A DNA stretch of 64,000 bases from Candidatus Omnitrophota bacterium (GCA_030650275.1 JAUSEK010000015.1:67834-131833), one strand, 5' to 3'; shown: positions 5,380-63,384, counted from the stretch's first letter. Numbers and translations are program-made. Notes: generated from the letters alone by a model not told the origin.

Positions 5380-5401
5380 CGTTGTCCGCTTCTGTCATTC
5401 C

Positions 5402-5492
5402 CGAATGCTTCTGTCGGGAATCCAGAACATGCCCTCCCTGGACCCCCGACAAAAACATTCGGGGGTGACACCTTCGGTGTCATTTTTTCAAC
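5402..5492 (+). repeat. Copy A of a ~90-bp multi-hairpin interspersed repeat (MITE/REP-like family)
   Basis: TGTCATTCCCGAATGCTTCTGTCGGGAATCCAG...GACCCCCGACAAAAACATTCGGGGGTGACACCTTCGGTGTCAT. It has three short inverted repeats. Related copies are at 34619-34701 (reverse orientation), 47801-47890 and 52133-52177. Confidence 0.85.
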
Positions 5493-34157: not shown

Positions 34158-34622
34158 ATGTTCACCACAGATCTGTTACGACAATTGGACAAGATCGCAG
34201 GTCAGTATGAGCAAAAACAGGCCGCGCTTTTGCCTGTTCTGCACGCGATCCAGGAGAAGGAGGGGTTGATCTCCCCGGAGTCGGAACAGGACGTTTCCCG
34301 GTATTTGGGCATTCCCGTGGTCCACGTCCATGAAGCGGTTTCTTTTTACCATTTGTTCCATCAAACAAAAAAAGGCAAATGCCATTTTTCGGTCTGTCAG
34401 ACCACGTCCTGCGCCTTGCTCGGAGGCGAGGACATCATTGAACATCTTAAAACGCGCCTGGGGATCAAGTCCGGGGAAACAACTCCCGACGGAAAGTTCA
34501 GTTTGAGCGTGGTGGAGTGCCTGGGGGCGTGCGAGTTAGCGCCCATGATGCAGTACAACAAGGAATACAGGGGTTTCTTGAACAAAAAGAAGATCGATGA
34601 GTTGATCGATAAGAATAAATGA
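34158..34622 (+). CDS. nuoE: NADH-quinone oxidoreductase subunit E
   Basis: 154 aa. 2Fe-2S thioredoxin-like (CQTTSCALLGGE...CLGACELAP). Confidence 0.9.
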   Translation: MFTTDLLRQLDKIAGQYEQKQAALLPVLHAIQEKEGLISPESEQDVSRYLGIPVVHVHEAVSFYHLFHQTKKGKCHFSVCQTTSCALLGGEDIIEHLKTRLGIKSGETTPDGKFSLSVVECLGACELAPMMQYNKEYRGFLNKKKIDELIDKNK

Positions 34623-34701
34623 CACCGAAGGTGTCACCCCCGAATGTTTTAGTCGGGGGTCCAGTGCACTGGATTCCCGATAAAAGCATTCGGGAATGAC
34701 A
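34619..34701 (-). repeat. Copy B of the ~90-bp multi-hairpin repeat, reverse orientation, in the nuoE|nuoF spacer
   Basis: Its reverse complement aligns base-for-base with copy A except for a 13-bp indel. Confidence 0.85.
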
Positions 34702-34710
34702 AGGATTGTT

Positions 34711-39269: not shown

Positions 39270-41528
39270 ATGAGAATAACGTTGAGACTTGTGTGTTTCT
39301 TGGTCGGTATTGTGGCCCTGGTCGCGCTCGTGTTCTCATTCTGGCAGGTCAGGCAGGAAGAAGACCGTCTCAAGGGAGAATTGGAAAAAAGGGCCGGTGT
39401 TTTTGCCGACAGCCTCAAGATCGCGGTTGAGCCGTTATTATCGGCTGATAATGTTCAGGCCCTTCAGAGCATGGTGGACAGGTTTTCTAATCGTGAACGG
39501 CTGGTTGGCATCGCCATTCATGATGTCCGGGAAAATTTGATCGTCGCATCCACGGAGATCCGTCCGCGGCTGGAAAAAGACCCGGGCTTCTGGGCGCAGG
39601 GGGTCCAGGACGTTGAGCGTTCAGGCGGGGAGCACGGCAGTTTTATGGGCTTCGGGAACGAGGCATTATATGTGTATGCCATTCCGATCCTGGCGGACAA
39701 CGAGGTCACGCGCGTTCTGTCGATCTTTTATGATGCCGGTTATATCCAGGAACGCATCCACCGCCTCTGGATCAACAGTTTTTGGCGGGCCTCTATCCAG
39801 GCATTCCTGATCACATTAGCGACGTTTCTTCTTATTTATCTCAACGTGATGGCCCCCATCAAGAAAACCACCGAATGGATCAGGAGGATCCGCAAAGGTG
39901 AATCTGTTCCCAGGCTGGATGCCAAGGGAGAATTGCTGCTGGGCCCTTTGGCCCAGGAGATCACACAAATGGCCAAAAGTTTGGAGATGGCCAGATTTGC
40001 CGCCGAGGAAGAGGCCCGTTTGCGGTATTCTTCGGAATCCCGATGGACGCCGGAGCGTTTGAAGGAGGTGGTACGGCTCAAGCTTAAGGACAAGCCGCTG
40101 TTCGTGGTCTCCAACAGGGAGCCGTACATGCATATTCATAACGGCAATCGGATCGAGTGCATTGTCCCGGCCAGCGGCTTGGTCACGGCCCTTGAGCCGG
40201 TGCTCAATGCCTGCGGAGGCACATGGATCGCGCAGGGCTCGGGTGACGCGGACAGGGAAACGGTCGACAAGAACGATAAGGTCAGGGTCCCTGTGCAGGA
40301 GCCGAAATACACCCTGCGGCGCGTATGGGTGGACAAGGACGTGGAAGAAGGATTTTATTCCGGATTTTCTAATGAAGGACTATGGCCTTTGTGCCATATC
40401 GCGCATACCCGGCCCATTTTCAGGAGCAAGGACTGGGCCGATTACAAGGCCGTCAACAAGAAGTTTGCCGACGCGGTCCTGCAAGAGATCGACGGGGTGG
40501 AGGGGCCTTATATTTTGATACAGGATTATCATTTTGCGTTGCTGCCGCGTTTGATCAAAACGGCAAGGCCGGATGCGCGGGTGGCGATCTTCTGGCACAT
40601 TCCGTGGCCGAATCCGGAATCGTTCGGCATTTGTCCATGGCGCAAAGACCTTTTGCAGGGCATGCTCGGCGCGGACCTTATCGGTTTCCATACGCAATTC
40701 CATTGCAATAACTTTATCGAATCCGTGGACCGGTTCCTCGAATGCCGCATTGATTATGAGCATTTTACCGTCAATCGTGAGGGCCACACCACATGGATCA
40801 AGCCGTTTGCCATCAGCATCGATTTCAATCCCGCCGACGGGGCCCAGCCCCAGACCCCATCCACAAAAGAGGGCCTGCTGAAACCCCACGGCATCCAGGC
40901 CCAATGGCTTGGTGTGGGAGTGGACCGGCTGGATTATACCAAGGGCATCGTGGAAAGGTTTCGGGCCATCGAGAACCTGCTGGACAATCATTCGGCCTTC
41001 AAGGGAAAACTCACCTTTGTCGAATTGGGGGCCCCGAGCCGCATCATGATCCCCAAGTATAAGGAATTCATCGATGAGATCGTCAAGGAGACCGAGCGCA
41101 TCAACGCGAAGTTCAAAACAAAGAACTGGCAGCCCATCCTGCTGTTGATGAAACACCACAGCCACAAGGACATCATCCCGTTTTATAAGGCCGCGGACGT
41201 GTGCATGGTGACGTCCTTGCACGACGGGATGAACCTGGTCGCCAAGGAATTCATTGCGGCGCGCGATGATGAGCAAGGAGTGCTGGTCCTAAGCCAGTTC
41301 ACCGGGGCTTCCAGGGAATTGAAGGACGCGCTGATCGTCAATCCTTATGATGTCGGTCAGATGTCGGAGGCACTCAAGCAGGCCCTGGAAATGCCGGACA
41401 AGGAACAGGCCGAGCGCATGAAGCGCATGCGCGATATCATCAAAGACAACAATATTTACCGCTGGGCCGGCGAACTGGTGGGACAATTGACCCAGGTCCG
41501 GATCGAGGGCGAGGAACCTTCCGCATGA
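39270..41528 (+). CDS. otsA: Membrane sensor-domain/HAMP-like::trehalose-6-phosphate synthase (GT20, OtsA) fusion
   Basis: 752 aa. TM1 (residues ~5-25). About 150 aa predicted periplasmic. TM2 (~aa 170-190). Amphipathic HAMP-like linker. Complete GT20 OtsA catalytic region from ~aa 270 ([12 protein letters not shown]..., [21 protein letters not shown]). Confidence 0.8.
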
Positions 41529-42319
41529 CGCAAATTTTCGACGCTCTGGATGCGTTAAAGGGCCGCGTCGCCGGCAGAGAGCTGGTCCTTTTTTTGGATT
41601 ATGACGGCACGCTGGCGCCGATCGCACAGAGGCCGGAGAAGGCCGTACTCGCCTCCGCGATGCGGTCGCTCTTGCAGGACCTGGCTGCGGCCCCCGCGTG
41701 CAAGGTCTGCGTTGTCAGCGGCAGGGCGCTCGCGGACATCAAGGAGCTCACCGGTGTCAGCAATATTAGTTATGTCGGCAATCACGGCCTTGAAATGGAC
41801 GTTCCCGATTTCGTTTTCGGGAATTTCGATCTTGCGCGGACCGGGGAAGTTCTGGGTCTCTTGAAGGAAGAGATCGGCAAGGCCATCTCTTCTTTCGAAG
41901 GTGCGTTCGTTGAGGACAAGGGTATCACGTTGAGCGTGCACTACCGCCTTGTCAGTCCCCGGTCGGAAGACCCCATCAAACGTTTGCTGGAGGACATCAC
42001 GAAACCCTTCGTGGCCAGGGGGGAAGTGCGCGTCAGTTCGGGCAAGAAGGTTTTTGAAATAAAGCCGCTCATTGATTGGGACAAGGGCCGGGCCGTTGCA
42101 TGGCTCTTGGGCGAGCATCAAAAGGCCTGCGGGACGATGCCAGCTGTCGTTTATATCGGGGATGACCGGACGGACGAGGATGCGTTCAAAGCCCTTACAG
42201 GCAGGGGCATCACCATCAAGGTCGGCGAAGGCGCAACGGCCGCGGAGTATCATGTGAAAGACCAGAACGAGGTCATTGTCCTGTTGAAGGCGATCTTGGG
42301 CTTAAGGAGGAAGGAATGA
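41525..42319 (+). CDS. otsB: Trehalose-6-phosphate phosphatase
   Basis: 264 aa. HAD motif I LFLDYDGTLAPI. Motif IV GDDRTDEDAF. Start overlaps the otsA stop. Confidence 0.85.
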   Translation: MTQIFDALDALKGRVAGRELVLFLDYDGTLAPIAQRPEKAVLASAMRSLLQDLAAAPACKVCVVSGRALADIKELTGVSNISYVGNHGLEMDVPDFVFGNFDLARTGEVLGLLKEEIGKAISSFEGAFVEDKGITLSVHYRLVSPRSEDPIKRLLEDITKPFVARGEVRVSSGKKVFEIKPLIDWDKGRAVAWLLGEHQKACGTMPAVVYIGDDRTDEDAFKALTGRGITIKVGEGATAAEYHVKDQNEVIVLLKAILGLRRKE

Positions 42320-44136
42320 CCGCGGGGTCCCCCAAAAACTTGAATTATGGCATCATCGGCAACTGCACCAGCGCGGCATTGGTCAATGAGGACTGTTCCA
42401 TTGATTGGCTATGCCTGCCTTTTTTTGACTCTTCTTCCGTGTTCGCGCGTATTCTCGATGAACAAAAAGGGGGACATTTTAAAATTTGGGCAAAAGACAT
42501 TTTAAATGTTGAGCAGTCCTATCTGTATCACACTCCTATCATCAAAACAGTTTTTACGACCAAGGACGGGGTATTTGAGGTGAGGGATTATATGCCCCGT
42601 TTCAGTCCTCATATTGGACAGGTTTATTGTCCGGCCGAGATCCACCGGGATGTTCATCTGGTCCGGGGAAACCCCAAGATCATTGTTGAATTTAAACCCA
42701 GACCTAATTACGGCTTGAGCGAGGCCCAATTGACCCCGCATCCTGAATATTTAAAAGTAACGTCCGTTCAGGGCGAATACAACAGTTATTATCTTTATAC
42801 AAATTTCAACATGAATGACATCATGCAGGACAGGGAAATTGAGCTTAAAGGACCGGCTTATTTTCTTTTGTCCTATCACGAGAAAATGGACCCGGTGACC
42901 CAGGATAAAATATTGATGGAATACGAACGGACAAAAAGTTATTGGCTGGATTGGGTTTATCGGACAAAAGTTCCCGGGAAATACCAGGAGATGCTCCTGC
43001 GTTCGATCATCACGCTCAAACTGTCCATGTTCCAACGCACCGGCGCGGTCATTGCCGCGCCGACAACGTCCCTACCGGAGATCATCGGGAAAGACCGCAA
43101 CTGGGATTACCGTTATTGCTGGGTGAGGGACGCGTCCATGATCATTGATCTGTATTCCCGCATCGGACATGCCAGGACCTCGTTGAGGTATATCAATTTC
43201 ATCCTGAACCGGATGCTCGTTAAAGATTACAACATTTTAGTGGTGTACGGCATTAACGGGGAAGAGAAGCTTGAGGAAAGGACCCTGGACCATTTGAGCG
43301 GGTATGAGGGATCGCGTCCGGTGCGCGTCGGCAATGCCGCCTATAAACAGAAACAAAATGACGTGTACGGGGAGCTGATCGAGACGATCTACACTTCATT
43401 TGTCGTTGATTCCCGCAGTGACCTGTTATTGAATGAAGAAACCTGGACGGTGGTGCGTTCTTTGGTCAAAAATGTGGAAAAAATATGGAAAGAGCCGGAC
43501 AGCGGCATATGGGAACGCAGGGGATCCCTGCGGCATTTTGTCCATTCCAAGCTCATGAGCTGGGTCGCGATGGACAGGGCGGCAAAGATCGCCCAATTCA
43601 TCGGCAAGACGCGTTATGTCGCGGGATTCTTAAAGGTGGCGGAGGAGATCAAGGAGGATATTTTAAAGAATGGATGGGATGATGAGTTAAAAAGTTTTGT
43701 GATGTATTATGGCGGCAAGGAATTGGACGCTTCCAACCTCTTGATGCTTCACTATGGCTTCCTGAACAAGGACGATCCCCGCATGGTGAGCACGGTGCTT
43801 AATACGCATCAAGTGTTGACCAAGGACGGTTTTGTCCTGCGTTACAAAGCCCCTGATGAATTCGGCAAGCCGCAAAACGCCTTTATCGTGTGTACGTTTT
43901 GGATGATCAACGCGCTGTACCTGATCGGGCATGAACAGGAGGCGCGCGATATGCTGGAGAAGATCATGTCTCATGCCAACAGATTCGGGCTTTTTTCTGA
44001 AGACATAGAGACAGACACCGGACGTTTGACGGGCAATTTCCCCCAGGGGTATTCCCACCTGGCCTTTATCCAGACCATTTTTGTTCTGGAAACGCAATAT
44101 GACTGGAGCGACGCGTCCAGGAAACGGATAAAATAA
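42316..44136 (+). CDS. Glycoside hydrolase family 15 protein (glucoamylase/trehalase-like)
   Basis: 606 aa. GH15 N-terminal beta-sandwich plus (alpha/alpha)6 barrel (AAPTTSLPE...WDYRYCWVRDAS...). Coupled to otsAB. Confidence 0.75.
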   Translation: MTAGSPKNLNYGIIGNCTSAALVNEDCSIDWLCLPFFDSSSVFARILDEQKGGHFKIWAKDILNVEQSYLYHTPIIKTVFTTKDGVFEVRDYMPRFSPHIGQVYCPAEIHRDVHLVRGNPKIIVEFKPRPNYGLSEAQLTPHPEYLKVTSVQGEYNSYYLYTNFNMNDIMQDREIELKGPAYFLLSYHEKMDPVTQDKILMEYERTKSYWLDWVYRTKVPGKYQEMLLRSIITLKLSMFQRTGAVIAAPTTSLPEIIGKDRNWDYRYCWVRDASMIIDLYSRIGHARTSLRYINFILNRMLVKDYNILVVYGINGEEKLEERTLDHLSGYEGSRPVRVGNAAYKQKQNDVYGELIETIYTSFVVDSRSDLLLNEETWTVVRSLVKNVEKIWKEPDSGIWERRGSLRHFVHSKLMSWVAMDRAAKIAQFIGKTRYVAGFLKVAEEIKEDILKNGWDDELKSFVMYYGGKELDASNLLMLHYGFLNKDDPRMVSTVLNTHQVLTKDGFVLRYKAPDEFGKPQNAFIVCTFWMINALYLIGHEQEARDMLEKIMSHANRFGLFSEDIETDTGRLTGNFPQGYSHLAFIQTIFVLETQYDWSDASRKRIK

Positions 44137-44145
44137 TACCCAGAC

Positions 44146-45219
44146 ATGGTCCTCATTTTTTCCTCCCTCTTAATTCTCGGAATCATTTCAGGCCAATTTG
44201 TTGATTTTTTTCAGGTCCGCGGGATCTTGACCTTCAGCGCGTCCGTATGCCTGGCTTATATCATGATGGATGTGGGGCGAGAATTTTCCGTTGAGAAGAG
44301 AAGTGTGGGGAGCTATGGACGGGATTCTCTGATCGCCACGGCGGCCGCGGTGCTCCCGGCGGTCCTGTGGTTTGGATATTTTGTGGTCTTTGTCAATAGC
44401 CATTGGAAGCCGGCGTTATTGTCAGGGCTTTCTTCGGCGCCCACGTCCGCCGGCGTTCTTTTCGCGATGATGACGGCGGCGGGTCTTTCCGCCGGCTGGG
44501 TCTTTAAGAAAGCGCGGGTCCTGGCTGTCCTGGATGATCTGGCGACCATCCTGTTATTAACGCCGCTTGCGATCATCATGTACGGGTTTGAATGGAAGGC
44601 GATCGCGGCGCTTATCCTGGTCGGTGTATTGTTATTCGCGTCATTCCGTTGGCAGGGCGCCATTCCATGGCCGGTCAGAACAATTTGGCTTTCTGTTTAC
44701 GCGTTTGTCTTAACGGGCATGGTTTTTCTGGTTGAGCAGGCAACGCACATTCATTTGGGAGTGCTGGTTCCGGCCTTCGTGTGGGGATGTTTACTGCGCC
44801 TGCCCGCGGATCAGAATCTTGAAGGACCGTCCCCCAGGATATCTTTGGACGCTGTCATCAAGGGAGCGTTCATGCTGTTAGTCGGGCTGACCTTTCCAAA
44901 GATCGTTGCCGGATCGGCTTCCCTGGCGCAAACGGCAGGGCATGTGCTGATCCTGACAATATTGGCGAACGTCGGGAAATTATTCCTGGTTTTTTGCTAC
45001 AAGACAGAGGCCTCTTTGAAAGAACGGATGGCTTTGGGTGTTGCGATGTTCCCCCGCGGGGAAGTGGGGGCCGCGATTTTGCTCATCGCCATCGGCTATG
45101 GCCTGGGCGGCTACGAAAACACCCTGGCCATCTTAAGCTTGGCGCTTAACCTAGTCCTGACCGGGGCGTTTATCTGGATCGTGATCCGTTTATTGAAACC
45201 TACTCGTTCTCTTTCCTGA
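44146..45219 (+). CDS. Polytopic membrane transporter (cation:proton antiporter-like)
   Basis: 357 aa. About 11 TM. No soluble domain. Family assignment is tentative. Confidence 0.4.
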   Translation: MVLIFSSLLILGIISGQFVDFFQVRGILTFSASVCLAYIMMDVGREFSVEKRSVGSYGRDSLIATAAAVLPAVLWFGYFVVFVNSHWKPALLSGLSSAPTSAGVLFAMMTAAGLSAGWVFKKARVLAVLDDLATILLLTPLAIIMYGFEWKAIAALILVGVLLFASFRWQGAIPWPVRTIWLSVYAFVLTGMVFLVEQATHIHLGVLVPAFVWGCLLRLPADQNLEGPSPRISLDAVIKGAFMLLVGLTFPKIVAGSASLAQTAGHVLILTILANVGKLFLVFCYKTEASLKERMALGVAMFPRGEVGAAILLIAIGYGLGGYENTLAILSLALNLVLTGAFIWIVIRLLKPTRSLS

Positions 45220-45394
45220 CGTCGATCCCCATGATCTCCCCGCCGCGGACCTTGACCTTCACCACGATGGGCGCACAGCAGACCTCGCAATCCACCACCA
45301 GCCGTTGTTCGGACCCACCGGTCGTGTCCACCATAAGCGTGTTGTCCTGGCCGCAGTAAGGACACACAAAGTTTTCGTCATGTTCCAGAGGCAT
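45200..45394 (-). CDS. CPXCG-motif zinc-ribbon protein
   Basis: 64 aa. CPYCG...CEVCC. Small cysteine-rich protein. Confidence 0.6.
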   Translation of the reverse strand: MPLEHDENFVCPYCGQDNTLMVDTTGGSEQRLVVDCEVCCAPIVVKVKVRGGEIMGIDVRKENE

Positions 45395-45427
45395 AATTTA
45401 ATAATACTCCCGTGGCCATGGCCGCGT

Positions 45428-45450
45428 CAAGGAAAGGGCCCCAGATTTTA
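45428..45450. repeat. Direct repeat 1 (ATGGCCGCGTCAAGGAAAGGGCC) flanking the TA cassette
   Basis: 22/23 identical to 46361-46383, which lies in the nuoN 3' end. Confidence 0.85.
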
Positions 45451-45622
45451 TAGCTTGATTTTATACAATAAATGTGCAGAATTAATAAAAGAAGCTACCA
45501 CATACGTTTCATCCCCGCCGCTTCTGTTTAATAATCCCCGTTTTTGATAGAATTGCCACGGAAGTTAAAATAATGAACTTGCAAATACAACCATATAGTT
45601 GTATACTTTAGTAGGTAGCAGA

Positions 45623-45976
45623 ATGAGTAAATTTACATGTATTTATTATCAAACCGATGCAGGGAGAAGGCCCGTTGAGGAGTTTATTGATTCTTTGCAT
45701 GAAAGAACGCAGCAAAAGTATTTTGAGGTGGTGGGGTTATTAGAGGATTATGGGAAGAGTTTACCAAAGCCGCACGCGGATTTTTTAGGCGGTGAGATTT
45801 ATGAGCTTCGGTTTGTAGGGATTGAAGGGAAAGTAAGAATTTTATATTTCTTTTATCATGGCAACAAGATCATTTTTACAAATGGTTTTGTAAAGAAACG
45901 GCAAAAGGCCCCTAAGATAGAGGTTGAATTAGCCAAAGAGAGAAGAATTCTTTATATCGGGAAGCACAATGGGTGA
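45623..45976 (+). CDS. Type II toxin, RelE/ParE superfamily (HigB/Gp49-like)
   Basis: Likely start MSKFTCIYYQTDAGRRPVEEFI. About 117 aa. ...LRFVGIEGKVRILYFFYHGNKIIFTNGFVKKRQKAP typical of the Gp49-like HigB family. The toxin gene comes first. Confidence 0.7.
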   Translation: MSKFTCIYYQTDAGRRPVEEFIDSLHERTQQKYFEVVGLLEDYGKSLPKPHADFLGGEIYELRFVGIEGKVRILYFFYHGNKIIFTNGFVKKRQKAPKIEVELAKERRILYIGKHNG

Positions 45977-45979
45977 CAT

Positions 45980-46309
45980 ATGAAAGAAATGACCGTTAGA
46001 GAACATCTTCAGGAGAAATTGAAGAATCCTTATTTCAAGGAACTGCACGAACTTGAGCAGCAGAAGTATGCCATTGTTAAGAAAATCATTGATTATCGTA
46101 TTAAGCAGAATCTCACCCAAGCGGATCTAGCTGAGCAGATCAAAGTATCTCAACAGCATATTTCTAAGATCGAGAGCGGCGAGTTCAGCAGTGTGGCTAC
46201 GTTAGAGAAAGTGTTATTGGGGATCGGCATGACCGTCAGGATCGGGGTTGTTAAATTAAATCCCCAGATCCATAAGAAAATAACCCGGGCAATGACCCAT
46301 TCTGTTTAA
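45980..46309 (+). CDS. XRE-family HTH antitoxin (HigA-like)
   Basis: 109 aa. LTQADLAEQIKVSQQHISKIESGE HTH_3 motif. 3-bp spacing after the toxin gene. Confidence 0.75.
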   Translation: MKEMTVREHLQEKLKNPYFKELHELEQQKYAIVKKIIDYRIKQNLTQADLAEQIKVSQQHISKIESGEFSSVATLEKVLLGIGMTVRIGVVKLNPQIHKKITRAMTHSV

Positions 46310-47772: not shown

Positions 47773-47800
47773 AGCGTTCTTTCATATTTTGTCACCCTTT

Positions 47801-47890
47801 TGTCATGCCCGAATGCTTCTGTCGGGCATCCAGTGCATTAGTGTCTGGACCCCCGACTAAAACATTCGGGGGTGACAAGCGGAATGACAT
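47801..47890 (+). repeat. Copy C of the multi-hairpin repeat, in the nuoM|nuoN spacer
   Basis: TGTCATGCCCGAATGCTTCTGTCGGGCATCCAG...GACCCCCGACTAAAACATTCGGGGGTGACA. Stem 1 carries paired T>G/A>C changes relative to copy A that preserve base-pairing. Confidence 0.85.
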
Positions 47891-52051: not shown

Positions 52052-52132
52052 ATGCTCAATATAGAAATAACCGTCATATTGTCAAGAATATTGTGCTATT
52101 GTTGTATTTTTTCAGCGGATAGAGAGAAAATT

Positions 52133-52177
52133 TGTCATTCCCGAAAGTTTCTGTCGGGAATCCAGACAAGGAACCCC
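52133..52177 (+). repeat. Partial copy D (first hairpin only) of the multi-hairpin repeat, upstream of nuoJ at the island boundary
   Basis: TGTCATTCCCGAAAGTTTCTGTCGGGAATCCAGACAAGGAACCCC. Confidence 0.75.
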
Positions 52178-52245
52178 ATGTATTGGATCCCTGACACAAT
52201 TACAATTGCCATCAAAGGATCAGATGTTATAATGTGTGACAAAAT

Positions 52246-52449
52246 GTGAGGAATATTATGACCAAAATTCCAGAAGTTTACACCGTCGCAGAAGTAGCGC
52301 GGGCTTTAAAACTTAATCCGTATACTATACGGCGTCTTGTGCGTGAAAAGAAAATCCCAGCCATCAAAATCGGCGGGCATTGGCGGTTTAGGAAGGGTGA
52401 CATCAACCGTTTGCTGGCTAACCCCAGAAAAAGAAAGATGAAGCAATGA
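52246..52449 (+). CDS. Excisionase/AlpA-type helix-turn-helix DNA-binding protein
   Basis: 67 aa. YTVAEVARALKLNPYTIRRLVREKKIPAIKIGGHWRFRKGDI is the classic HTH_17/Xis signature. Stop overlaps the start of the next gene (ATGA). Confidence 0.75.
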   Translation: MRNIMTKIPEVYTVAEVARALKLNPYTIRRLVREKKIPAIKIGGHWRFRKGDINRLLANPRKRKMKQ

Positions 52450-55400
52450 GTACAGATTTAACATTTTTTACTAATGAAAAGGGACGTACCCTTCTTGATC
52501 GATTTAAAATTACTTTGGCGAATAACACTAAGTTTTTTGATGTGTTGGTTGGATACTTCAGAACTAGCGGTTTTTATCACTTGTACCAGTCGCTTGAGAA
52601 AGTCGAAAAGATTCGGATTTTAGTCGGGATCAACGTAAATAAACAGACACACGATCTATTGATTGAGGCGAAAGAGCAGCAGTTGGCGCTCGCGTTTTCC
52701 CATAAAGAAACAAAGGACGCGTTTGCGGATGAAGTCGCCCGGGAAATGGAGGAGTCGGAAGATAATGCGGAAACAGAGATTGGCGTCCAGAAGTTCATTG
52801 AATTCATAAAAAATGGCAAGCTTGAAATTCGCGCGTATCCTTCGCAGGATATTCACGCCAAGGTTTATATCATTCGTAAAGATCAATCTAAGAGTGAAGA
52901 TTTTGGTCGGGTGATCACTGGTTCAAGCAATTTTTCGTATGCAGGCCTCCATGAAAATCTTGAGTTTAACGTTGAGTTGAAGGATAGCAGGGATGTAAAG
53001 TTTGCTTTGGAGAAGTTTGAGGATCTCTGGAAGGATTCAGTTGATATTTCAGAGAAATATATTGAGACGGTTAACACAAGAACATGGCTCAATGATGCGA
53101 TTTCCCCACATGATCTGTACTTGAAATTTTTATACGAGTACTTTAAGGATGAATTAAATCAGTCCGACGAAGTTTTCTATCGCTATCTACCCATCGAATT
53201 CAAAAAATTTGAATATCAAGAGCAGGCAGTTCTTAACGCCAAAAAGATCCTTGAAGAGTATGGTGGTGTCTTCATCTCAGACGTAGTTGGCCTTGGGAAA
53301 ACATATATTTCAGCAATGCTTGCCAGCCAGCTTGATGGCAGAACCTTGGTCATAGCACCGCCTATTTTGCTTGAGAAAAATAATCCCGGCTCTTGGCCTA
53401 ATGTTTTTGATGACTTCCGGGTTCACGCGCACTTTGAGTCGATTGGTAAATTGGACGCCCTTGTCGAAGCTGGGACTGATAAATTTACGAATATTATTAT
53501 TGATGAAGCCCACCGGTTCCGTACTGAGAGCAACATGACCTATGAAAAATTGGCTGAGGTATGCCGTGGCAAGCGGGTTATTCTCGTTACAGCCACACCT
53601 TACAATAACTCACCCAAGGATATTTTAAGTCAAATTAAGTTGTTCCAAAAAGCGAGAAAAAGCACAATTCCAAACCTCCCCGATTTGGAGAAGTTTTTTA
53701 ACGGCCTTGATAGGCGATTAAAGGTTTTGGATCGTCAGCGAGATTATTCGGAATATATTAAGACCGTTAAGGAAAACGCCAGAGAGATCCGGGAAAAGGT
53801 GTTGAAGTATTTAATGGTTCGTCGCACCCGTTCAGAGATTATAAAATACTTTGGTGAGGATTTGGCAAAGCATAAACTCAAATTTCCCGATGTCGAGAAA
53901 CCAGAGCCACTTTTTTATGAACTTAATGATGAGGAAGATTTGGTATTCAGTCGAACTATTGAGTTGATCGCTCATAAATTTAAATACGCCCGCTACACTC
54001 CGATGCTTTATTACAAAGGGGAAGTGTCTCAACCAGAGAAATTATCCCAAAGAAACATGGGAAAATTTATGAAGATTCTGATGGTCAAACGGTTGGAGAG
54101 TAGTTTTTTTGCTTTTAGAAATACCCTTGATCGTTTTATTTATTCCTATGAGCAATTCATTAAAGAATTTGACGGTGGCAACGTCTATGTGAGCAAAAAA
54201 CACAGCAACAAAGTATTTGAGTTTTTGGAAAACGATGATGACGCGGCTGTTCAGCGCCTTATTGATGAAGGTAAGGCGGAGAAGTTTAAGAGTGGTGATT
54301 TCAAAGAAGGGTTGCTAAAAGATTTAAAGAGTGATCTGGATATATTAAAAGAAATTCATAAAATTTGGAGCACGGTTAAACGAGATCCGAAGCTATTGGC
54401 TTTTCTTGACCGGCTTGCCAGCAATCAAATCCTAAAGAAAAATAAACTCATCATTTTTACGGAATCCAAAGAAACGGCTGAATATTTAGCAAAAAATATT
54501 GAGATTAAATTTCCCAATACCACGCTTTGTTTTACTGGGGCATCAGGCGAGGTTATCCGCGAGAAGGTGATTGATAACTTTGATGCGAAAGTTAAACATC
54601 CAAAGGACGATTACCGGATTTTAGTATCAACAGAGGTTCTCTCCGAAGGTGTTAACTTGCATCGATCCAATGTGGTTATCAATTATGATATTCCATGGAA
54701 TCCTACCCGGATGATGCAAAGAGTTGGCCGCGTCAATCGAGTTGATACTAAATTTGACGTAATTTATACGTTCACCTTTTTCCCCACCAAACAAGCTAAC
54801 GATCAGATTAAGCTCAGAGAAGCGGCCGAGGCCAAGATTAATGCGTTTATCTCCATGCTTGGATCCGATGCTCGTCTTCTAACCGAAGGAGAGCCCATAG
54901 AACAGCATGAGCTATTTAATCGGTTAACTTCTAAGAGGACTATTACCGGTGAAGATGACGGCGAAGAGAGCGAATTGAAGTATCTGTATGTTATTAAGAC
55001 TATTCGGGATCAAGATCCGGAGATGTTTGAGAAAATCAAGCGGCTCCCCAGAAAATCAAGAACCGCGCGAGCCAACGGTGAAAAAGTTAATTCACTACTG
55101 ACATATTTTAGACGTGGAAAGATCGAGAAATTTTTTATTGCGGGGGGTAACGAGAAATCGCAGGAACTTGACTTTATGTCAGCAGCTAAAACTTTAGAGA
55201 GTGGGAAAGATGCCCCTAAAGGCAAGATTGATAACAAGAATTTTTATGAGCTTTTAGCTCAGAATAAACAGGCGTTTATTTATGCCACCACCGAGGAGTT
55301 GCCCGAGGTTAAATTGCGGGGCGGCCGGGATAGCGCGACGCAAGTCCTTAGGATTATAAAGGCCACCTTAAAAGACAGTAGGCAATTTACTGATGACCAG

Positions 55401-55643
55401 GAGTATTACCTTAAAAAAGTTCGCACACAATTGGAAGAGGGCGCTCTACCTAAGCAGACAACCAAGAAAACACTTCAGGCCTTAAATGATGAGCTTAAAA
55501 AGGGAGTTAATCCCCTGCGAATCCTCGCCCGTTTACAGGCAAATATACCGGCGAAGCTTCTCGAGGGACATTTTGTTGAAGATCATGCGCAAGTATTTGG
55601 AAAAAGAGAAGTCATATTATCGGAATATTTAATCGCCGGATAA
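52446..55643 (+). CDS. PLD-family nuclease domain fused to SNF2-family helicase
   Basis: 1065 aa. N-terminal single HKD motif (IHAKVYIIRKD...VITGSSNFSYAGLHENLEFNVEL). Walker A VVGLGKTY. DEAH (IIIDEAHRFR). Helicase-C motifs (LVSTEVLSEGVNLH, QRVGRVNRV). The frame is intact. Confidence 0.8.
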   Translation: MSTDLTFFTNEKGRTLLDRFKITLANNTKFFDVLVGYFRTSGFYHLYQSLEKVEKIRILVGINVNKQTHDLLIEAKEQQLALAFSHKETKDAFADEVAREMEESEDNAETEIGVQKFIEFIKNGKLEIRAYPSQDIHAKVYIIRKDQSKSEDFGRVITGSSNFSYAGLHENLEFNVELKDSRDVKFALEKFEDLWKDSVDISEKYIETVNTRTWLNDAISPHDLYLKFLYEYFKDELNQSDEVFYRYLPIEFKKFEYQEQAVLNAKKILEEYGGVFISDVVGLGKTYISAMLASQLDGRTLVIAPPILLEKNNPGSWPNVFDDFRVHAHFESIGKLDALVEAGTDKFTNIIIDEAHRFRTESNMTYEKLAEVCRGKRVILVTATPYNNSPKDILSQIKLFQKARKSTIPNLPDLEKFFNGLDRRLKVLDRQRDYSEYIKTVKENAREIREKVLKYLMVRRTRSEIIKYFGEDLAKHKLKFPDVEKPEPLFYELNDEEDLVFSRTIELIAHKFKYARYTPMLYYKGEVSQPEKLSQRNMGKFMKILMVKRLESSFFAFRNTLDRFIYSYEQFIKEFDGGNVYVSKKHSNKVFEFLENDDDAAVQRLIDEGKAEKFKSGDFKEGLLKDLKSDLDILKEIHKIWSTVKRDPKLLAFLDRLASNQILKKNKLIIFTESKETAEYLAKNIEIKFPNTTLCFTGASGEVIREKVIDNFDAKVKHPKDDYRILVSTEVLSEGVNLHRSNVVINYDIPWNPTRMMQRVGRVNRVDTKFDVIYTFTFFPTKQANDQIKLREAAEAKINAFISMLGSDARLLTEGEPIEQHELFNRLTSKRTITGEDDGEESELKYLYVIKTIRDQDPEMFEKIKRLPRKSRTARANGEKVNSLLTYFRRGKIEKFFIAGGNEKSQELDFMSAAKTLESGKDAPKGKIDNKNFYELLAQNKQAFIYATTEELPEVKLRGGRDSATQVLRIIKATLKDSRQFTDDQEYYLKKVRTQLEEGALPKQTTKKTLQALNDELKKGVNPLRILARLQANIPAKLLEGHFVEDHAQVFGKREVILSEYLIAG

Positions 55644-55646
55644 TGT

Positions 55647-58600
55647 ATGGATAAAAATACAAGCCACAAAATTATTAAGGATACTTTGGAAAGAGCATTT
55701 GATAAAAATAAATTTTTTCTATTTGCAAAGAATCTCTGCAATCAGATTGATGAATCAAAGGCATTTCAGTTAAGTGGGGCTTATATCCCAGATGCATTTC
55801 GCGGATACGTTAAGTCATATGAACGGCTTGGAACTTTTACCGACCCGGAAGATAAGAAGATAGATGTCTTGATTGTCTATCTTCAAAAGAAAACTTCTTT
55901 GGAGAGGGCCCGCACCGCACAGCGCAATTTCGTTGCTCGCTATCTCAAAGATCGTGATCAAAAAGATGCTGGTCTGGTTGCTTTCGTTTCCCCAAACTCG
56001 GAGGATTGGCGGTTTTCCCTGATCAAAATGGAGTACAAGTTTACCGAGGGGAAATCCGGGAAGGTAAAGGTCAAAGAAGAATTCACCCCGGCGCGTAGAT
56101 GGTCTTTCCTTGTCGGGGCTAATGAAAACAGCCACACAGCCAAGAGTCGTTTGGCCCCGATCGTTCAGGATGATGAGCATAACCCTACCCTGAATTTTTT
56201 TGAAGAAGCATTCAATATTGAAAAAGTCACAAAAGAGTTCTTTGAGAAATATCGTGACCTGTTTTTGCGGGTTAAAGAAACTCTCGATGATGTGGTTAAA
56301 CAAGACCCGAAGATCAAGAAAGATTTTATTGCTAAGGGCGTGGATACTGTTGACTTTGCAAAGAAGCTACTCGGGCAGATTGTTTTTCTTTATTTTTTAC
56401 AAAAAAAAGGTTGGTTCGGTGTCGAACGCGATGCAGATTGGGGTTCCGGGCCTAAAAATTTTTTACGTCAACTCTTTGATAAAAAACACAGCGATTATAG
56501 GAACTTTTTTAACGATATTTTAGAACCGTTATTTTATGAAGCCCTTGCCCGTGAACGAGATCATGATTTTTACAGTCGCTTCAACTGTAAAATTCCTTTT
56601 TTAAACGGCGGTCTATTTGATCCAATCAATAATTATGACTGGGTTCATACTGATGTTCTTTTACCCGACGATTTATTCTCGAATGAAAGGAAAACTAAAG
56701 AAGGCGATATTGGTGACGGTATTTTAGATATTTTTGACCGGTATAATTTTACAGTTAAAGAAGATGAGCCACTTGAAAAGGAAGTGGCCATTGATCCTGA
56801 AGTGTTAGGAAAAATATTTGAAAAGCTTGGAGCGATAACGCCAAGTAGATTTAATGAATGGGCAGAAGCAGTCCGTTCCGGGGAAAAGAGCAAGGAGCAG
56901 GAGGCTAATAAAAAATTGGGAGTTTATTATACTCCTCGTGAAATTGTTCACTACATGTGTGTGCAAAGTTTAGTTAATTATTTAGATATGGAACTTCATG
57001 GGAAGGTTTTACAAGAAGATCTGGAAAAATTTATTAAGTATGGAGAGATGGCCGTTGAGCACGAAGCGCTATATGCTGAAAAGATTGAACAGAATCCGGA
57101 TTATAAAGGGAGATACGCCAAACCCAAATTGCCAGTTAGCATTGAACAAAACGCAGAAATAATTGATAGATCTTTAGCCAACATTAAAGTTTGCGACCCT
57201 GCTATTGGTTCGGGTGCTTTCCCAGTAGGCATGATGACAGAGATTGTTCGCAATCGGAATACGCTTTCAAGTTATCTTAAGGATCCAAGTCGTACGATTT
57301 ATAATTTCAAACGTGATTGTATTCAAAATTCGCTTTATGGTGTGGACATTGACCGGGTGCTGTTGAAATCGCCAAGCTTCGTTTGTGGCTGTCGCTTGTT
57401 GTGGATGAGGACGACATTAAGCAGATTAAGCCGTTACCAAATTTGGACTACAAGATAATGCAGGGCAATAGCTTGTCGGAAGAGTTTGAGGGTGTAAAGC
57501 TGTTTGATGACAAGCTAATTTTTGCTGTTAATTTCGATAAGGAAAAACAGGTTGAAGATCTCAAGGAAAAACAGAACACTCTATCGAGTGAGTATATTAA
57601 ACTTCATCAGGATAATAAACTGACCAATATAAGGAAAGAGGAGATAAAAGTAGAACTAAAGAAAATAAATAATCAGATTAAGAGCCTCAACCAGTCTGGG
57701 AAGAAGGCTCATGACGATACTGGGTTGTTTGATGTTTTCAGCAATGCAAAGAAGAAAGCGGACGAGTTAAAGCGCCTGCATAAAGAATTCTTTGAGACGA
57801 CCCAAAAGAAGGATGATCTTAAGAAACAGATTGAAAAGCTCGAATGGGATCTTATTGAGGCTACCCTTAAGGAACAAGGGAAAAATTCAGAGCTTAAAAA
57901 ACTTGAGGAGTTTAAGAAGACAAATACAAAACCTTTTTTTCTTTGGAAGCTCCACTTTGCCGATGTATTTGAAGAGAAGGGCGGTTTCGATGTTGTAATT
58001 GCGAATCCACCGTATATTAAAGAAGATGTGAATAGACATGCCTTTGACGGGCTGAGAAAGTCGGATTGTTATCAGGGTAAAATGGACATATGGTATTTGT
58101 TTGGTTCTGAAGGGTTGGATATTTTGAGAAATCATGGGGTAATGACATTTATTGCTACAAATAATTGGGTTACGAACGATGGTGCATCTAAGTTTAGAAA
58201 TAAAATAATTAAGTATGGCCGTATTATTGATTTTATTGATTTTGGAGATTATAAAATTTTTTCTGCGGGAATCCAAACAATGGTTTTTGTAGTTCTTAAG
58301 GATAACGAATCACCAGAATATGATTTGAAGTATGCCAAGCTACTTGATAATAATGCCGACGGAACGTTGTTAACAAGTTTTTTAAATGAACCCCATGAAT
58401 TATTAAATCATCGATTTGAGAAATTTAAAGTTTCAATTAGAAGATCCTCCTATTTAGAAGGTTATATTAAATTTATCCACCCCACCATTGGCAGGATATT
58501 AGATAGGATAAAGAGTGCAGGTTGTTTTAATTTAATGGATCACGAAATATTTAGTGGGATTGATGTAATGCAGGATTTTGTCGCCAAATCACATTTGGAA

Positions 58601-59329
58601 AAGCTGAATGGAAAAATTGGTGTTGGTGATGGTGTTTTTGTCTTAAGTGAAATAGAAAAAACACGAATCAAATGGAGCAACAAGGAATTAAATTTAATAA
58701 AACCATATTATACGACTCGGGAAATCGCAAGATATTATGCCAATAAATCCAATAGGCATTGGATTGTTTATACCGGGGCTGACGCTAACGATAAAATTAG
58801 CCTTTATCCAAATATAAAAAAACACTTAGATAAATTTAAAAAAATAATTACATCTGTAAATAAACCATATGGTTTACACAGAACCCGTGATGAAGAAAAT
58901 TTTCTTGGTCAAAAAATATTTTCTATTCGTAAATGTGCAATACCATCCTTTTCCTTGGTAAATTTTCCGTGCTATGTGTCTAGGGCATTCTTGATTATTA
59001 AGACAAACAGAATTGATTTTAAATATCTCCTGGCGATCTTGAATTCTAAAGTCACTGTTTTTTGGTTACTGCATAAGGGGAAGCTCCAAGGAAATCAATT
59101 TCAGGTAGATAAGGTACCATTGATGGATATCCCAATAGTATGCGGTCAACCTTCTAATCAAAAGCCCATAATTGATCTTGCGGATAAGATTTTATCATTG
59201 GCTCAGGATAACAAACAGACGCAAGATAAAATAAAAGAATACGAGCGTCAAATTGATCAAATGGTCTATGCGCTTTATGGCCTGACGGACGAGGAGATTA
59301 AGATCGTTGAGGAAAGTGTGGGTAAATGA
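55647..59329 (+). pseudogene. Gamma-class N6-adenine DNA methyltransferase (PglX/DrmMI/type IIG-like, ~1230 aa) disrupted by a -1 frameshift at ~57353
   Basis: ORF 55647-57458 carries the conserved N-terminal region (KIPFLNGGLFDP) and motif I (VCDPAIGSGAFPV...YGVDIDR). ORF 57383-59329 continues with AVEIAKLRLWLSLVVDE...NLDYKIMQGNSL, motif IV VVIANPPYIKE, and the C-terminal target-recognition region ending QMVYALYGLTDEEIKIVEES. The frames join if GACCGGG is read as GACCCGGG. Confidence 0.8.
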
Positions 59330-59946
59330 TAATAAAGATGGAAGAAGATACAAGATACCAGAAAGCGATACAAAGAAATATTGATTCGATTTTTCATGCT
59401 TTGTGGGAGTGGAAAACGATAGAAGCCTTTGAGCAATATGTAGAAGGAAAAAGGATCTATGTTTTAGGCCAAAATTTTTTTAAAATAATGCCGGTTGCCT
59501 TTTTTGGTGACATGTTAAGAAACGCCATTAATGTGCTTGATAAACACAGTGATGTCGCTTCATTTTGGTATATTCTAGAAGTAGGCGAAATTAAATCGTT
59601 AGAGATATATTCAGAACAAAAAATTGATTCTTTGAAAGATTTGGCTGGGAAATTAAAACACATTCGTGATAAAGTTTTTTTTCATCATGATAAGAATGGT
59701 GTTTTAGATACAAAGAAAATTTGGAAAGAAGCCGACATTGTAGGGAAAGATGTTGGCGAGGCCATTCAATATTTATTTTCTATATTGAAAGAGTTATATG
59801 AAAAGGTCATGAAAAAACAATATCACTCCGATCCTGATAATAGCATTGGGGAAGATTTCGTTAAACTATTAAATTTTGCAGCAGAAAATGGTTTTATTGA
59901 GGTTCGTTCGGAGAATTTTCGGGGACGTCTTCGAGTCTGTGGGTAG
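59326..59946 (+). CDS. Hypothetical protein, translationally coupled to the methyltransferase
   Basis: 206 aa. No recognisable motif. ATGA overlap with the upstream stop. Confidence 0.45.
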   Translation: MIIKMEEDTRYQKAIQRNIDSIFHALWEWKTIEAFEQYVEGKRIYVLGQNFFKIMPVAFFGDMLRNAINVLDKHSDVASFWYILEVGEIKSLEIYSEQKIDSLKDLAGKLKHIRDKVFFHHDKNGVLDTKKIWKEADIVGKDVGEAIQYLFSILKELYEKVMKKQYHSDPDNSIGEDFVKLLNFAAENGFIEVRSENFRGRLRVCG

Positions 59947-59983
59947 GATTAATCGTTAAATCTAGAGAGAAGAAAAAAACGTC

Positions 59984-60817
59984 ATGGCACAAAAATTCTA
60001 TGAAAAAGCATCAGTTCAAGTAGCAATAGTTGCGGGTATTTTTTCGTTGCTTTACTGCGGAATAACTATCTGGAACGATCGATCACAATTAAAACAAGAC
60101 AATCAAAATTATGTTCGAGAATTGATTCAAAAAGACAGTCGCATTGCAAGCTTAGAGCGAGAGATCCAACGATTAGAAATTCAACTCGTACCTTTAAAAA
60201 TAGTCTCGCTGGAAGGGCAATCTTTTATATTTAATGTTGCTAAGATTTCACAGTTAGGAGATTTGTCATCTTGGCATAATAAGTATGGCGGCCAACGACA
60301 AAGCTATGAGGAATTATTATCTTGGGGAAAAAAAGAAAATAGTTCCGAAATAAAGAAAAAGATTTCTGTCGAGACAGAAAGACTAGAAGAAATTTATGAC
60401 CCACGTATTATGATACCAACCATAGAACAGCCTATTTCTATATGTAAATTTATAACTCAGCCAAATATTCCTGCTTGTGCTTGGGGGCTCGAACCGCCTA
60501 CAGGTTACGATGCAAAAAATGTATTTCATCATCTGACTGAAAGGATATGGACTGAACGCGCCAGAGCCGCCTGTCTATTAAGGAATATAAGGACATCGCA
60601 GTATAAAGATCAAATAGACAAAGAAAAGCTTTTTGACACTCTCGTATCTCTCATGAAAGAAGAAAATGAAAAGAGCTTATTTGTTAGCAAAATGGCTCTA
60701 AATACCTATAGCGAATTGACGGGATTTTCACCTTCTGGCGTGTTTGATTTTGATGGCGCGATTAATGATTGGAAAAGCATGGAAAGAAAAAAAGAAATTT
60801 TAAAAATAAACTTCTGA
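59984..60817 (+). CDS. Hypothetical membrane-anchored coiled-coil protein
   Basis: 277 aa. One N-terminal TM (VAIVAGIFSLLYCGITIW) then coiled-coil (ELIQKDSRIASLEREIQRLEIQL). No known domain. Confidence 0.4.
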   Translation: MAQKFYEKASVQVAIVAGIFSLLYCGITIWNDRSQLKQDNQNYVRELIQKDSRIASLEREIQRLEIQLVPLKIVSLEGQSFIFNVAKISQLGDLSSWHNKYGGQRQSYEELLSWGKKENSSEIKKKISVETERLEEIYDPRIMIPTIEQPISICKFITQPNIPACAWGLEPPTGYDAKNVFHHLTERIWTERARAACLLRNIRTSQYKDQIDKEKLFDTLVSLMKEENEKSLFVSKMALNTYSELTGFSPSGVFDFDGAINDWKSMERKKEILKINF

Positions 60818-60947
60818 AAGTTGGGACGTCCCCTTAATCAGATGGTTGGAATAGGAAATTTTGATGACGCATAAAGAATCCGAAACAATCGAATTCAAAA
60901 AATCCACCGCCGAGGTTAAAGTGGGGGATGGCCGGGGAGAGGAGTAA

Positions 60948-62201: not shown

Positions 62202-62337
62202 TCAGGCGGAACCCATTGATATCCCGCCATGATATTGCGAGTAAGCTTGAGATCAATGATTCCGTGGTTCGGAAGCATTTGGACGCATTGAAGGCCAAAG
62301 GCGTGCTTAAGAGGGTTGGCCCTGATAAAGGCGGACA

Positions 62338-63384
62338 TTGGGAGGTTGTGGCTTGGAAATAAAGAACTCATTCGGCCTGACCAAGGTCAAGCATGTCATC
62401 GCCGTCTCTTCCTGCAAAGGCGGGGTGGGCAAATCCACTGTTGCCGCGGGATTTGCGCGTTCTTTATGCCAACAGGGCTTTAAAACAGGACTTTTGGATG
62501 CCGACATCCACGGACCATCCCTTCCAACGCTGTTTAACCTGACCTCCGGCGTTAAGGTCCTTTCCAATGAATTCCGGATGATCGTTCCTGTTGAATCCCA
62601 GGGGCTCAAATTGATGTCCTTTGGTTTTTTGCTGGGGGACGCGCCGGCTGTGATGCGCGGGCCCATCGTCACCCGGTATATCCAGCAGATGATGCTTCAG
62701 ACCGACTGGGGCGAACTGGATTATCTGATCGTTGACATGCCGCCCGGGACAGGGGACGTGCAGTTGACCATCACCCAGTCCGCGCGCCTGACGGGCGCTG
62801 TGATCGTCACCACCCGCCAGACCTTGTCGCTGGTGGACGTGGCGCGCGGGATCCTGATGTTTGAGAAGGTGAGCGTTCCCATTTTAGGCATCGTTGATAA
62901 CATGGCCTATTTTGTCTGCGGATCCTGCCAGACAAAGCATTATCTGTTTGGCGGCGAGCATGCGCTGGAAAAACGTTTCGGCGTCAAGACGCTGGTGGAG
63001 ATCCCGTTGATCGCGGACCTTGCTCTGGAGTCCTATATGGACCAGGGCGCGCAAGCGATGTTGGACGCGGTCAAGGCACAGGCACAGGCCAAAGAGCAGC
63101 TTCCCGAGGTCAGTTTTGACGCAGAGCATATCCATTTGAAATTTGCCGACGGCAGGCAGGTGCAGGTGAAAAATCGCGACCTGCGTTTGAATTGCATGTG
63201 CGCTTTATGCGTGAGTGAATTGACCGGACAGAAATTGATCGCCCCTGCGAAAATACGCCCTGACATTGCTCCCAAAGAAATCGTGCCGCTGGGCAATTAT
63301 GCCTTGAGCATCACATGGAACGACGGCCATTCTTCAGGTATCTATCCCTATTCCATGTTTGAATTATGGGGACACAATACTTAA
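62338..63384 (+). CDS. Mrp/NBP35 (ApbC-like) Fe-S cluster carrier ATPase with C-terminal DUF971-like domain
   Basis: About 345 aa. The start is uncertain; an alternative TTG lies near 62353. P-loop SCKGGVGKST. CxxC (FVCGSC). C-terminal ...NYALSITWNDGHSSGIYPYSMFELW. Confidence 0.8.
   Translation: MGGCGLEIKNSFGLTKVKHVIAVSSCKGGVGKSTVAAGFARSLCQQGFKTGLLDADIHGPSLPTLFNLTSGVKVLSNEFRMIVPVESQGLKLMSFGFLLGDAPAVMRGPIVTRYIQQMMLQTDWGELDYLIVDMPPGTGDVQLTITQSARLTGAVIVTTRQTLSLVDVARGILMFEKVSVPILGIVDNMAYFVCGSCQTKHYLFGGEHALEKRFGVKTLVEIPLIADLALESYMDQGAQAMLDAVKAQAQAKEQLPEVSFDAEHIHLKFADGRQVQVKNRDLRLNCMCALCVSELTGQKLIAPAKIRPDIAPKEIVPLGNYALSITWNDGHSSGIYPYSMFELWGHNT

Follow-up and report, generated by a model that had tools for sequence, protein, structure and literature searches.

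A long-loop, TGTC-tagged repeat of probable REP type in Candidatus Omnitrophota and many other phyla, and its occurrence beside small GIY-YIG genes

The DNA analysed here, referred to throughout as the window, is a 64-kb stretch of a Candidatus Omnitrophota MAG. Four loci in the window, designated copies A to D, contain related inverted repeats. By Pfam annotation, the neighbours of copy A are a nitrilase-family gene and a GST gene, both encoded on the minus strand; copy B occupies the nuoE|nuoF spacer and copy C the nuoM|nuoN spacer; and copy D, located at the border of a low-GC island, is flanked by nuoJ and a gene for a PLD-SNF2 helicase. Among named proteins, those closest to NuoE and NuoN come from Candidatus Omnitrophota/Omnitrophica MAGs. 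An original prediction, made from the sequence of the window, had placed a repeat family at about these coordinates and had assigned copies B and C to the two nuo spacers; all four loci are present, and both assignments were confirmed by Pfam. It had also stated that no transposase is associated, and indeed domain annotation found no transposase gene in the 64-kb window. A tblastn search for an ssn/GIY-YIG gene in the same 64 kb was negative as well.

The repeated unit is smaller than the three-hairpin 90-mer that had been proposed. The consensus from the four loci, TGTCAYNCCCGAAWGYTTYWRTCGGGNRTCCAG, defines a 33-nt module, TGTCA-YN-CCCGAAWGYTTYWRTCGGG-NR-TCCAG, with seven occurrences in the window at 0 mismatches. 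Dinucleotide-preserving shuffles of the window contained no module match in 100 attempts (chance expectation 0). Seven exact matches against none in the shuffles identify the 33-nt module as the repeat, and each "copy" of about 80-90 bp consequently comprises two modules in inverted orientation whose TGTC ends face out. Three such tags-outward pairs (A, B and C) and one with a decayed partner (D) make up the arrangement in the window (Table 1). All modules are intergenic, at two loci (B and C) within nuo operons, and the three intact dimers have one shared orientation relative to the flanking co-directional genes.

Each module starts with an unpaired TGTC and ends with an unpaired CCAG, which enclose a hairpin with a stem of 8 bp and a loop of 9 nt. 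Read from the base, the GC-rich stem is composed of A-T (A5-T29 in the window modules), Y-R and N-N pairs, followed by CCCGA/TCGGG. The two stems of a pair differ, a module with TT/AA (or TG/CA) at the stem base being partnered by one with CC/GG, and this difference prevents the pair from forming a perfect long palindrome. The original description of the stems TTCCCGA/TCGGGAA and CCCCCGA/TCGGGGG was correct, and so was that of the compensatory change to TG/CA in copy C. When folded as ssDNA, a single module forms the 8-bp stem and the 9-nt loop and leaves TGTC and CCAG unpaired; for module 1 of copy A the energy is -6.7 kcal/mol, with both flanks unpaired. For a module pair, the minimum-energy fold is one long imperfect hairpin and not separate small ones, and dimer RNA folds have energies of -43 to -60 kcal/mol with z-scores of -6 to -9.5. 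Copy A, a tags-outward ("HH") heterodimer, gives one long hairpin both as RNA (z -5.9 to -8) and as DNA (z -6.3).

Table 1. Modules, partial modules and extra hairpins at the four loci, with positions in the window.
Feature	Position	Strand	Basis or remark
Copy A module 1, TT/AA type, stem ATTCCCGA/TCGGGAAT	5393..5425	+	exact pattern match
Copy A module 2, CC/GG type, inverted partner, 12-nt spacer	5438..5470	-	pattern match
Copy A extra small hairpin TGACACC-TTC-GGTGTCA	5466..5482	.	read from sequence
Copy B extra hairpin TGACACC-GAAG-GTGTCA	34620..34638	.	read from sequence
Copy B module 1, CC/GG type	34632..34664	+	exact pattern match
Copy B module 2, TT/AA type, 4-nt spacer	34669..34701	-	exact pattern match
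Copy C partial module head TGTCACCC (presumed outer remnant)	47790..47797	+	read from sequence
Copy C module 1, TG/CA type (compensatory variant)	47801..47833	+	pattern match, ssDNA fold
Copy C module 2, CC/GG type, 11-nt spacer	47845..47877	-	exact pattern match
Copy C partial module end GGAATGACA (presumed outer remnant)	47881..47889	-	adjoins nuoM stop codon 47891-47893
Copy D intact module, TT/AA type	52133..52165	+	exact pattern match
Copy D internally deleted partner TGGATCCC-TGACA	52184..52196	-	read from sequence; missed by pattern search

The original prediction had given each copy three inverted repeats. The third of these, GTGACACC/GGTGTCAC, is found in copies A and B only and is absent from C and D. 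In the extra hairpin of copy A, the TGACA end of module 2 pairs with an inverted TGTCA, and copies A and B share 52 nt at 96%, the extra hairpin included. Nor is a third hairpin a general trait of the family: TGAC was found at most 20 nt upstream of the tag in 18 of 236 modules, and few of these are similar.

Copy C looks nested. From the sequence, we infer that the remnants TGTCACCC and GGAATGACA on its two sides represent an outer, disrupted dimer oriented like copy B; a later dimer would have inserted into an earlier one or taken the place of its central part. Copy D is partial, as predicted, with one intact module and an internally deleted partner.

The placement of copy D at the left edge of an island was also correct. 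L213, a 91%-identical contig, aligns to window positions 52103-47910 and then, 12 nt on, to 62657-62355, which means that window positions 52104-62354 are absent from L213. This island is 10.25 kb long and has a GC content of 0.34-0.41 versus about 0.53 elsewhere, and copy D starts 29 nt inside its left end (52104). Its genes encode a PLD + SNF2/ResIII helicase, a 603-aa protein of no known family, an Eco57I-like methylase, a HEPN AbiU2-like protein and a Schlafen AlbA_2/HATPase_c_4 protein, and the segment looks like a defence island. A recombinase gene was not seen in it. In L213, nuoJ and the Mrp/ParA-like gene are 12 nt apart; in the window, the last gene of the island overlaps and re-creates the start of the Mrp-like gene.

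Other features of the window are recorded here for completeness. A second, unrelated palindromic repeat family, with arms of 27-34 nt (GAATTATGGGGACACAATACTTAATTC), a spacer of 16-18 nt and no TGTC tag, occurs in the gyrA|gyrB spacer (8749-8832) and after the Mrp/ParA-like gene (63361-63434). The chromosomal replication origin is probably at 12836-14720. In this neighborhood, dnaA-dnaN-gyrB-gyrA lie on the minus strand (6277-14170), a perfect DnaA box TTATCCACA is found at 14190-14198, rpmH (14326-14462) and yidC (14695-16299) lie on the plus strand, and the cumulative GC skew has its minimum near 10-14 kb of the window. Between the convergent nuo half-operons (39270-46309), cargo is variable across relatives. 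In the window, this slot holds trehalose genes (GT20 OtsA-like, trehalose phosphatase, GH15) together with a Gp49/HTH toxin-antitoxin-like pair, L213 has DUF1016/YhcG and nucleotidyltransferase-type genes in the matching slot (5944-8090), and other relatives have a Na+/H+ exchanger.

Empty sites in relatives provide evidence for insertion. The nuoE|nuoF spacer is 88 nt long in the window versus 3-26 nt in eight other contigs (L211, L212, L209, L210, L202, L203, L205 and L207), and contigs with a NuoE 96, 95, 92, 85, 81 and 80% identical to that of the window have no module at nuoE|nuoF. The relatives that lack the insert include five with NuoE identities of 92-96%. The insert of copy B spans approximately positions 34621-34710 and fills the spacer: the filled site reads AAAT|GACACC...GGGAATGACAAGGATTGTT|ATGG, and the empty site AAAT|AGACC|ATGG. 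No target-site duplication was found at nuoE|nuoF, the sole junction resolved, where 5 nt are replaced by about 88 nt. Likewise, nuoM and nuoN overlap in L213 and in L215, versus a 118-nt spacer in the window, and the 137-nt window segment 47773-47909 corresponds to 9 nt in L213. In relatives, no modules were detected within 5-20 kb around nuo. As the sites are empty in relatives with 94-96% identical NuoE or NuoN, copies B and C are recent insertions. They are inserted DNA and not ordinary spacer, in line with the original prediction.

The insertions also changed gene ends. In copy B, the TGACA of the element supplies a new nuoE stop codon TGA (34620-34622), and AAGGA is located 5 nt before the nuoF start. 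The nuoE stop codon is TAG in empty sites, so the insertion replaced the stop codon and parted genes that had been 3 nt apart. In copy A, the GST stop codon (TCA on the plus strand, 5480-5482) is inside the terminal TGACA/extra hairpin. The junctions of copies A and B are both AAAT|GACACCGAAGGTGTCAC, with the TGA of the upstream gene within the terminal TGACA. The B and C insertions likely broke an original stop/start overlap of the flanking genes. Logan contigs from the window's own sample break off within copies B and C, which is the behaviour expected of a multi-copy repeat.

The module is not confined to the window. A scan of one genome per species with TGTCANNCCCGA-N9-TCGGGNNTCCAG identified at least 120 loci in MAGs of more than 20 phyla, the hosts among the matches listed including Nitrospirota, Omnitrophota, Dadabacteria, Desulfuromonadales, Calditrichia, Ignavibacteria, Binatia, Anaerolineae, Planctomycetota and others. 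Many of the matches are at contig ends. The loop has 9 nt in 340 of 356 relaxed matches and in all window modules, and the 5' flank of relaxed matches is TGTCA in 156 cases and CGTCA in 6. At the second stem pair, 121 of 133 unique modules have T-A and 10 have C-G, the latter including the CC type of the window.

Covariation had been suggested by the single compensatory case in copy C. Most genome loci were retrieved by a pattern in which 5 of the 7 stem pairs are predetermined, and for this reason the least biased covariation signal is that of the two free pairs and of anchor-only variants. The two pattern-free stem positions are complementary in essentially all 134 modules (column counts within one). 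An anchor-only search of all fetched DNA with TGTCA-N23-TCCAG gave 173 matches versus 2.5 expected; in the 133 distinct sequences, 99% of stem cells are paired, and double changes occur in 6 of the 7 core pairs. None of 500 shuffles reached the observed values, and in slid controls 11-61% of cells were paired. The stem is thus maintained by compensatory change across many phyla, and the covariation supports the small 8-bp module hairpin. The repeat is structure-constrained, as had been claimed, and the evidence is much stronger than the one case first noted.

Such constraint could act on DNA or on RNA. E. coli REPs have been proposed as mRNA stabilisers, processing sites or attenuators. The hairpins described here might similarly be primarily RNA elements with selection on the RNA, as copies B and C are inside transcription units, the dimers have very stable predicted RNA folds, and the three intact dimers are oriented alike. 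Many REPs of the CGTC type (see below) have also been argued to be transcribed, just 3' of ORFs (Di Nocera et al., 2013, PMC3733652). However, three same-orientation dimers out of three have a chance probability of 0.25, and wobble pairs (G-U/G-T) are almost nil, with about 3 in 925 stem cells. This rarity fits better with constraint on DNA than on a transcript. The unpaired tag and tail are strand-specific, yet every dimer holds both orientations; no Rfam family is available for the element; and the family is tightly tied to a nuclease that acts on ssDNA and not on RNA (see below). A primary role at the RNA level appears improbable to us, and RNA effects are more likely a consequence than a cause of conservation. 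According to the folding models, transcripts through the nuoE|nuoF and nuoM|nuoN copies would likely carry very stable hairpins as a side effect.

Modules in other genomes follow the same pairing rules as in the window. The genome loci contain 96 adjacent module pairs, of which 87 have the tags outward, at spacer lengths of 3-55 nt; of the 301 modules in these loci, 112 are solitary. Partners with identical stems are rarer than chance (4 of 81 distinct pairs versus 12.2 expected with shuffled partners, P=0.003). The same dimer behaviour has been described for CGTC REPs, and it was suggested that imperfect palindromes escape SbcCD-type cleavage (PMC3733652). On a Nitrospirales chromosome (L023, OZ251550.1, 1-1200), we observed a tandem array of about six 207-bp units, each composed of a tags-outward dimer and 22-nt tandem half-modules (CTGTCATACCCGAAC...). 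This array shows that the family is able to form BIME/NIME-like clusters.

The dimers share some traits with a conventional MITE, i.e., an internally deleted DDE-type insertion sequence with terminal inverted repeats: their ends are inverted (TGTCA...TGACA), their length is 70-90 bp, and they are insertion-polymorphic. The conserved unit is, however, the single hairpin, often without a partner and with spacers of variable length between partners, and a protein-bound double-stranded TIR does not need covariation within the module. No DDE transposase is associated, and no target-site duplication emerged from the filled versus empty comparison at nuoE|nuoF, which as a single site is weak but negative evidence. 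That the dimers derive from a DDE-type element is extremely unlikely. The original classification as MITE/REP-type stands for its REP part and fails for DDE-type MITEs.

Several further candidates were considered and rejected. Searches for Rfam RNA families at gathering thresholds returned tRNAs only, and permissive searches gave sub-threshold microRNA-precursor look-alikes, which are generic long-hairpin artefacts. Integron attC sites do not apply, as GTTRRRY/RYYYAAC boxes are missing and the copies are not in cassette arrays. The array on the Nitrospirales chromosome is not a CRISPR, its 207-bp units being whole dimers plus flanks. The copies are also not intrinsic terminators: the T-run that follows copy A belongs to the non-coding strand of each neighbouring gene.

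The best match among known elements is the CGTC/TGTC-tagged REP superfamily, which was defined by Di Nocera, De Gregorio and Rocco (2013, BMC Genomics 14:522, PMC3733652). Its members have an unpaired tag (CGTC, with variants TGTC and CCTC), an 8-9-bp stem, A-T residues at positions 1-2 and an unpaired CCA tail. They form mostly "HH" dimers (tags outside), frequently heterodimers, and include dRS3 (= CGTC-1). The window modules agree with this description in their unpaired TGTC tag (7 of 7 modules), in the 8-bp stem with A-T as first pair, and in the tail CCAG, which fits CCA. Further likenesses are the HH predominance, the high proportion of heterodimers (77 of 81 distinct pairs), the intergenic location right after ORF ends, and the occurrence in several phyla. 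A difference is the loop, which has 9 nt in the window and 4-5 nt in families CGTC-1 to -4. As odd loops were reported in a few species (PMC3733652), the 9-nt loop argues for a new family within the CGTC superfamily and not for exclusion from it. The hosts found here (Omnitrophota, Nitrospirota and many candidate phyla) are outside that survey. No dedicated mobilising gene or transposase was identified for the superfamily, and no RAYT or IS200 gene was found flanked by CGTC units (PMC3733652).

More recently, the Neisseria repeat NTS, CGTCATTCCCGCGMAVGCGGGAATCYRG, which contains dRS3, was shown to be the target of SsnA, a 94-aa GIY-YIG protein (Chenal et al., 2025, Nat Commun 16:2388, PMC11893778). 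SsnA binds NTS only as ssDNA, and not as RNA, and cuts a few nt upstream. Binding depends critically on the C that follows the palindrome, and cutting on the three nt that precede the palindrome, the loop sequence being dispensable, and ssn genes are usually bracketed by NTS or SRM motifs. In Neisseria, the role of SsnA is to cut incoming transforming ssDNA (PMC11893778). The window modules share with NTS a 5' (C/T)GTCAT, a TTCCCG...CGGGAA stem, the C right after the palindrome and a TCCAG tail. GTC before and C after the palindrome, the positions reported to matter for SsnA, are present in every window module. Also in common with NTS/SRM are hundreds of mostly intergenic copies. Bracketing of a small GIY-YIG gene by modules is seen in other genomes (see below), and the window itself has no ssn gene in the 64 kb searched. 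The published SRM motif HGTCWYN(0-2)YYVSBRHN(0-5)WNVSBRGN(0-2)RNCYNB has 0 matches on either strand of the window, due to the 9-nt loop and the A-T closing pair; once loop and closing pair are relaxed, all window modules match.

The link to small GIY-YIG genes is based on other loci. The Omnitrophota locus L008 has an ORF for a 97-aa GIY-YIG protein (PF01541, E-value 9e-17) with modules on both sides. We used this ORF as query and fetched 80 metagenomic homologues. GTCW-tagged perfect 7-bp hairpins were found nearby for 78 of the 80, at a density of 8.7 per kb within 100 bp of the gene versus about 0.1 per kb more than 500 bp away (approximately 90-fold). In 54 homologues the hairpins flank both sides within 300 bp; in 33, precisely one module in forward orientation precedes the gene and one in reverse orientation follows it, and many more have this arrangement with extra copies. 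The commonest arrangement around homologues is tags-outward, the same geometry as in gene-less dimers. The published SRM motif occurs within 300 bp of 58 of the 80 homologues, and NTS with at most 2 substitutions in 44. On the strength of these NTS/SRM-like flanks, we take the small GIY-YIG (PF01541) proteins to be of Ssn type.

The long-loop form of the module takes part in this association. Modules with a 9-nt loop have a density of 0.31 per kb near homologue genes versus 0.006 per kb far from them (approximately 55-fold), and were found near ssn in L008, L125, L134, L138, L140, L157, L182 and L197. The ssn genes flanked by long-loop modules do not form a separate clade and are scattered in the protein dendrogram, so that no cognate pairing can be argued; this scatter is consistent with the loop having been reported as irrelevant. 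When the GIY-YIG protein was compared with PDB sequences, the only matches were weak ones to UPF0213, SLX1 and UvrC, with no solved Ssn structure, and NCBIfam has no specific model for the protein. Downstream of ssn in L008 (7140-7255), a module appears to be interrupted by approximately 90 bp of unrelated sequence (TGTCATTCCCGCGCGCTTTTAGC ... GGGAATCCAG), which may be an insertion into the module.

A partner gene of another kind would be expected if the repeats were REPIN/BIME-type elements mobilised by a RAYT (IS200/IS605-like). REPs and REPINs are small hairpins with an unpaired tetranucleotide tag, arranged in inverted pairs. The REP/BIME/REPIN and RAYT systems of E. coli and Pseudomonas resemble the present family in form, with tagged small hairpins in intergenic regions, inverted doublets able to fold into a single long hairpin, a lack of target duplications, and repeats on both sides of a single-copy partner gene. 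They differ in the tag, which is GTAG and not TGTC/CGTC, and in the partner, which is a HUH tyrosine transposase with a covalent intermediate and not a GIY-YIG nuclease. Here, it is the GIY-YIG gene that has partner-type bracketing, and, as mentioned above, CGTC units are not known to flank RAYT or IS200 genes. Clustering of 696 ORFs located at most 400 bp from modules in 120 loci identified no family in more than 4 loci (a test of low power for a single-copy partner), and the only Y1_Tnp fragment seen (L205) has no modules nearby. Mobilisation by a RAYT is very unlikely. NIMEs and Correia-type MITEs are alike in being short intergenic repeats with inverted dRS3-type ends, and form clusters or tandem arrays as in L023. 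Correia elements differ by a TA duplication and longer TIRs, and NIMEs by internal repeats of 50-150 bp, whereas the spacers here have 3-55 nt and are not conserved.

Together, these observations indicate that the four loci are probably copies of a TGTC-tagged REP of the CGTC superfamily, the class of Neisseria dRS3/NTS and of SRM, with a proposed Ssn-type partner. What is new is the long-loop TGTC-tagged form in Omnitrophota and many other phyla; the kind of element was already known. As the window has no ssn gene, the presence of the partner protein in the Omnitrophota host is an assumption.

By analogy with Neisseria, each module would fold when DNA becomes single-stranded (lagging-strand template, incoming DNA or repair DNA). 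The folded module would be bound strand-specifically by an Ssn-type nuclease encoded elsewhere in the genome, which would nick a few nt 5' of the TGTC tag. As Ssn recognises ssDNA and not RNA, selection is more likely to act on the DNA hairpin than on an RNA structure. The dimer would be the gene-less counterpart of the module-ssn-module unit, and might spread or be maintained through the nuclease and host repair. Mobilisation of the dimer through the Ssn-type nuclease is speculative; to our knowledge, GIY-YIG enzymes form no covalent DNA intermediate, which counts against a nick leading to copying into a new site. It is possible, though we are doubtful, that the tags-outward dimer is a non-autonomous form of module-ssn-module, and that TGTC/CGTC REPs are an active mobile class driven by a GIY-YIG ssDNA nuclease instead of HUH or DDE enzymes, the insertions being fresh transpositions. 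If so, two or three insertions relative to 91-96%-identical relatives would be fresh transposition events, and the nested copy C and the missing target duplication would be transposition footprints.

For the family as a whole, previous work had left open whether new copies of CGTC REPs still arise (PMC3733652), and had supplied a partner nuclease, mostly from Pseudomonadati, and no spreading mechanism (PMC11893778). The present analysis adds a long-loop form that the published search motif misses and that occurs across many uncultivated phyla, and the finding that ssn genes lie in the same tags-outward arrangement as gene-less dimers. In practical terms, TGTC-tagged repeats break short-read assemblies, and a simple pattern can now label such spacers in annotation. 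The comparison of filled and empty sites adds evidence of recent gain, even inside essential nuo operons, where the insertions replaced stop codons and broke translational coupling.
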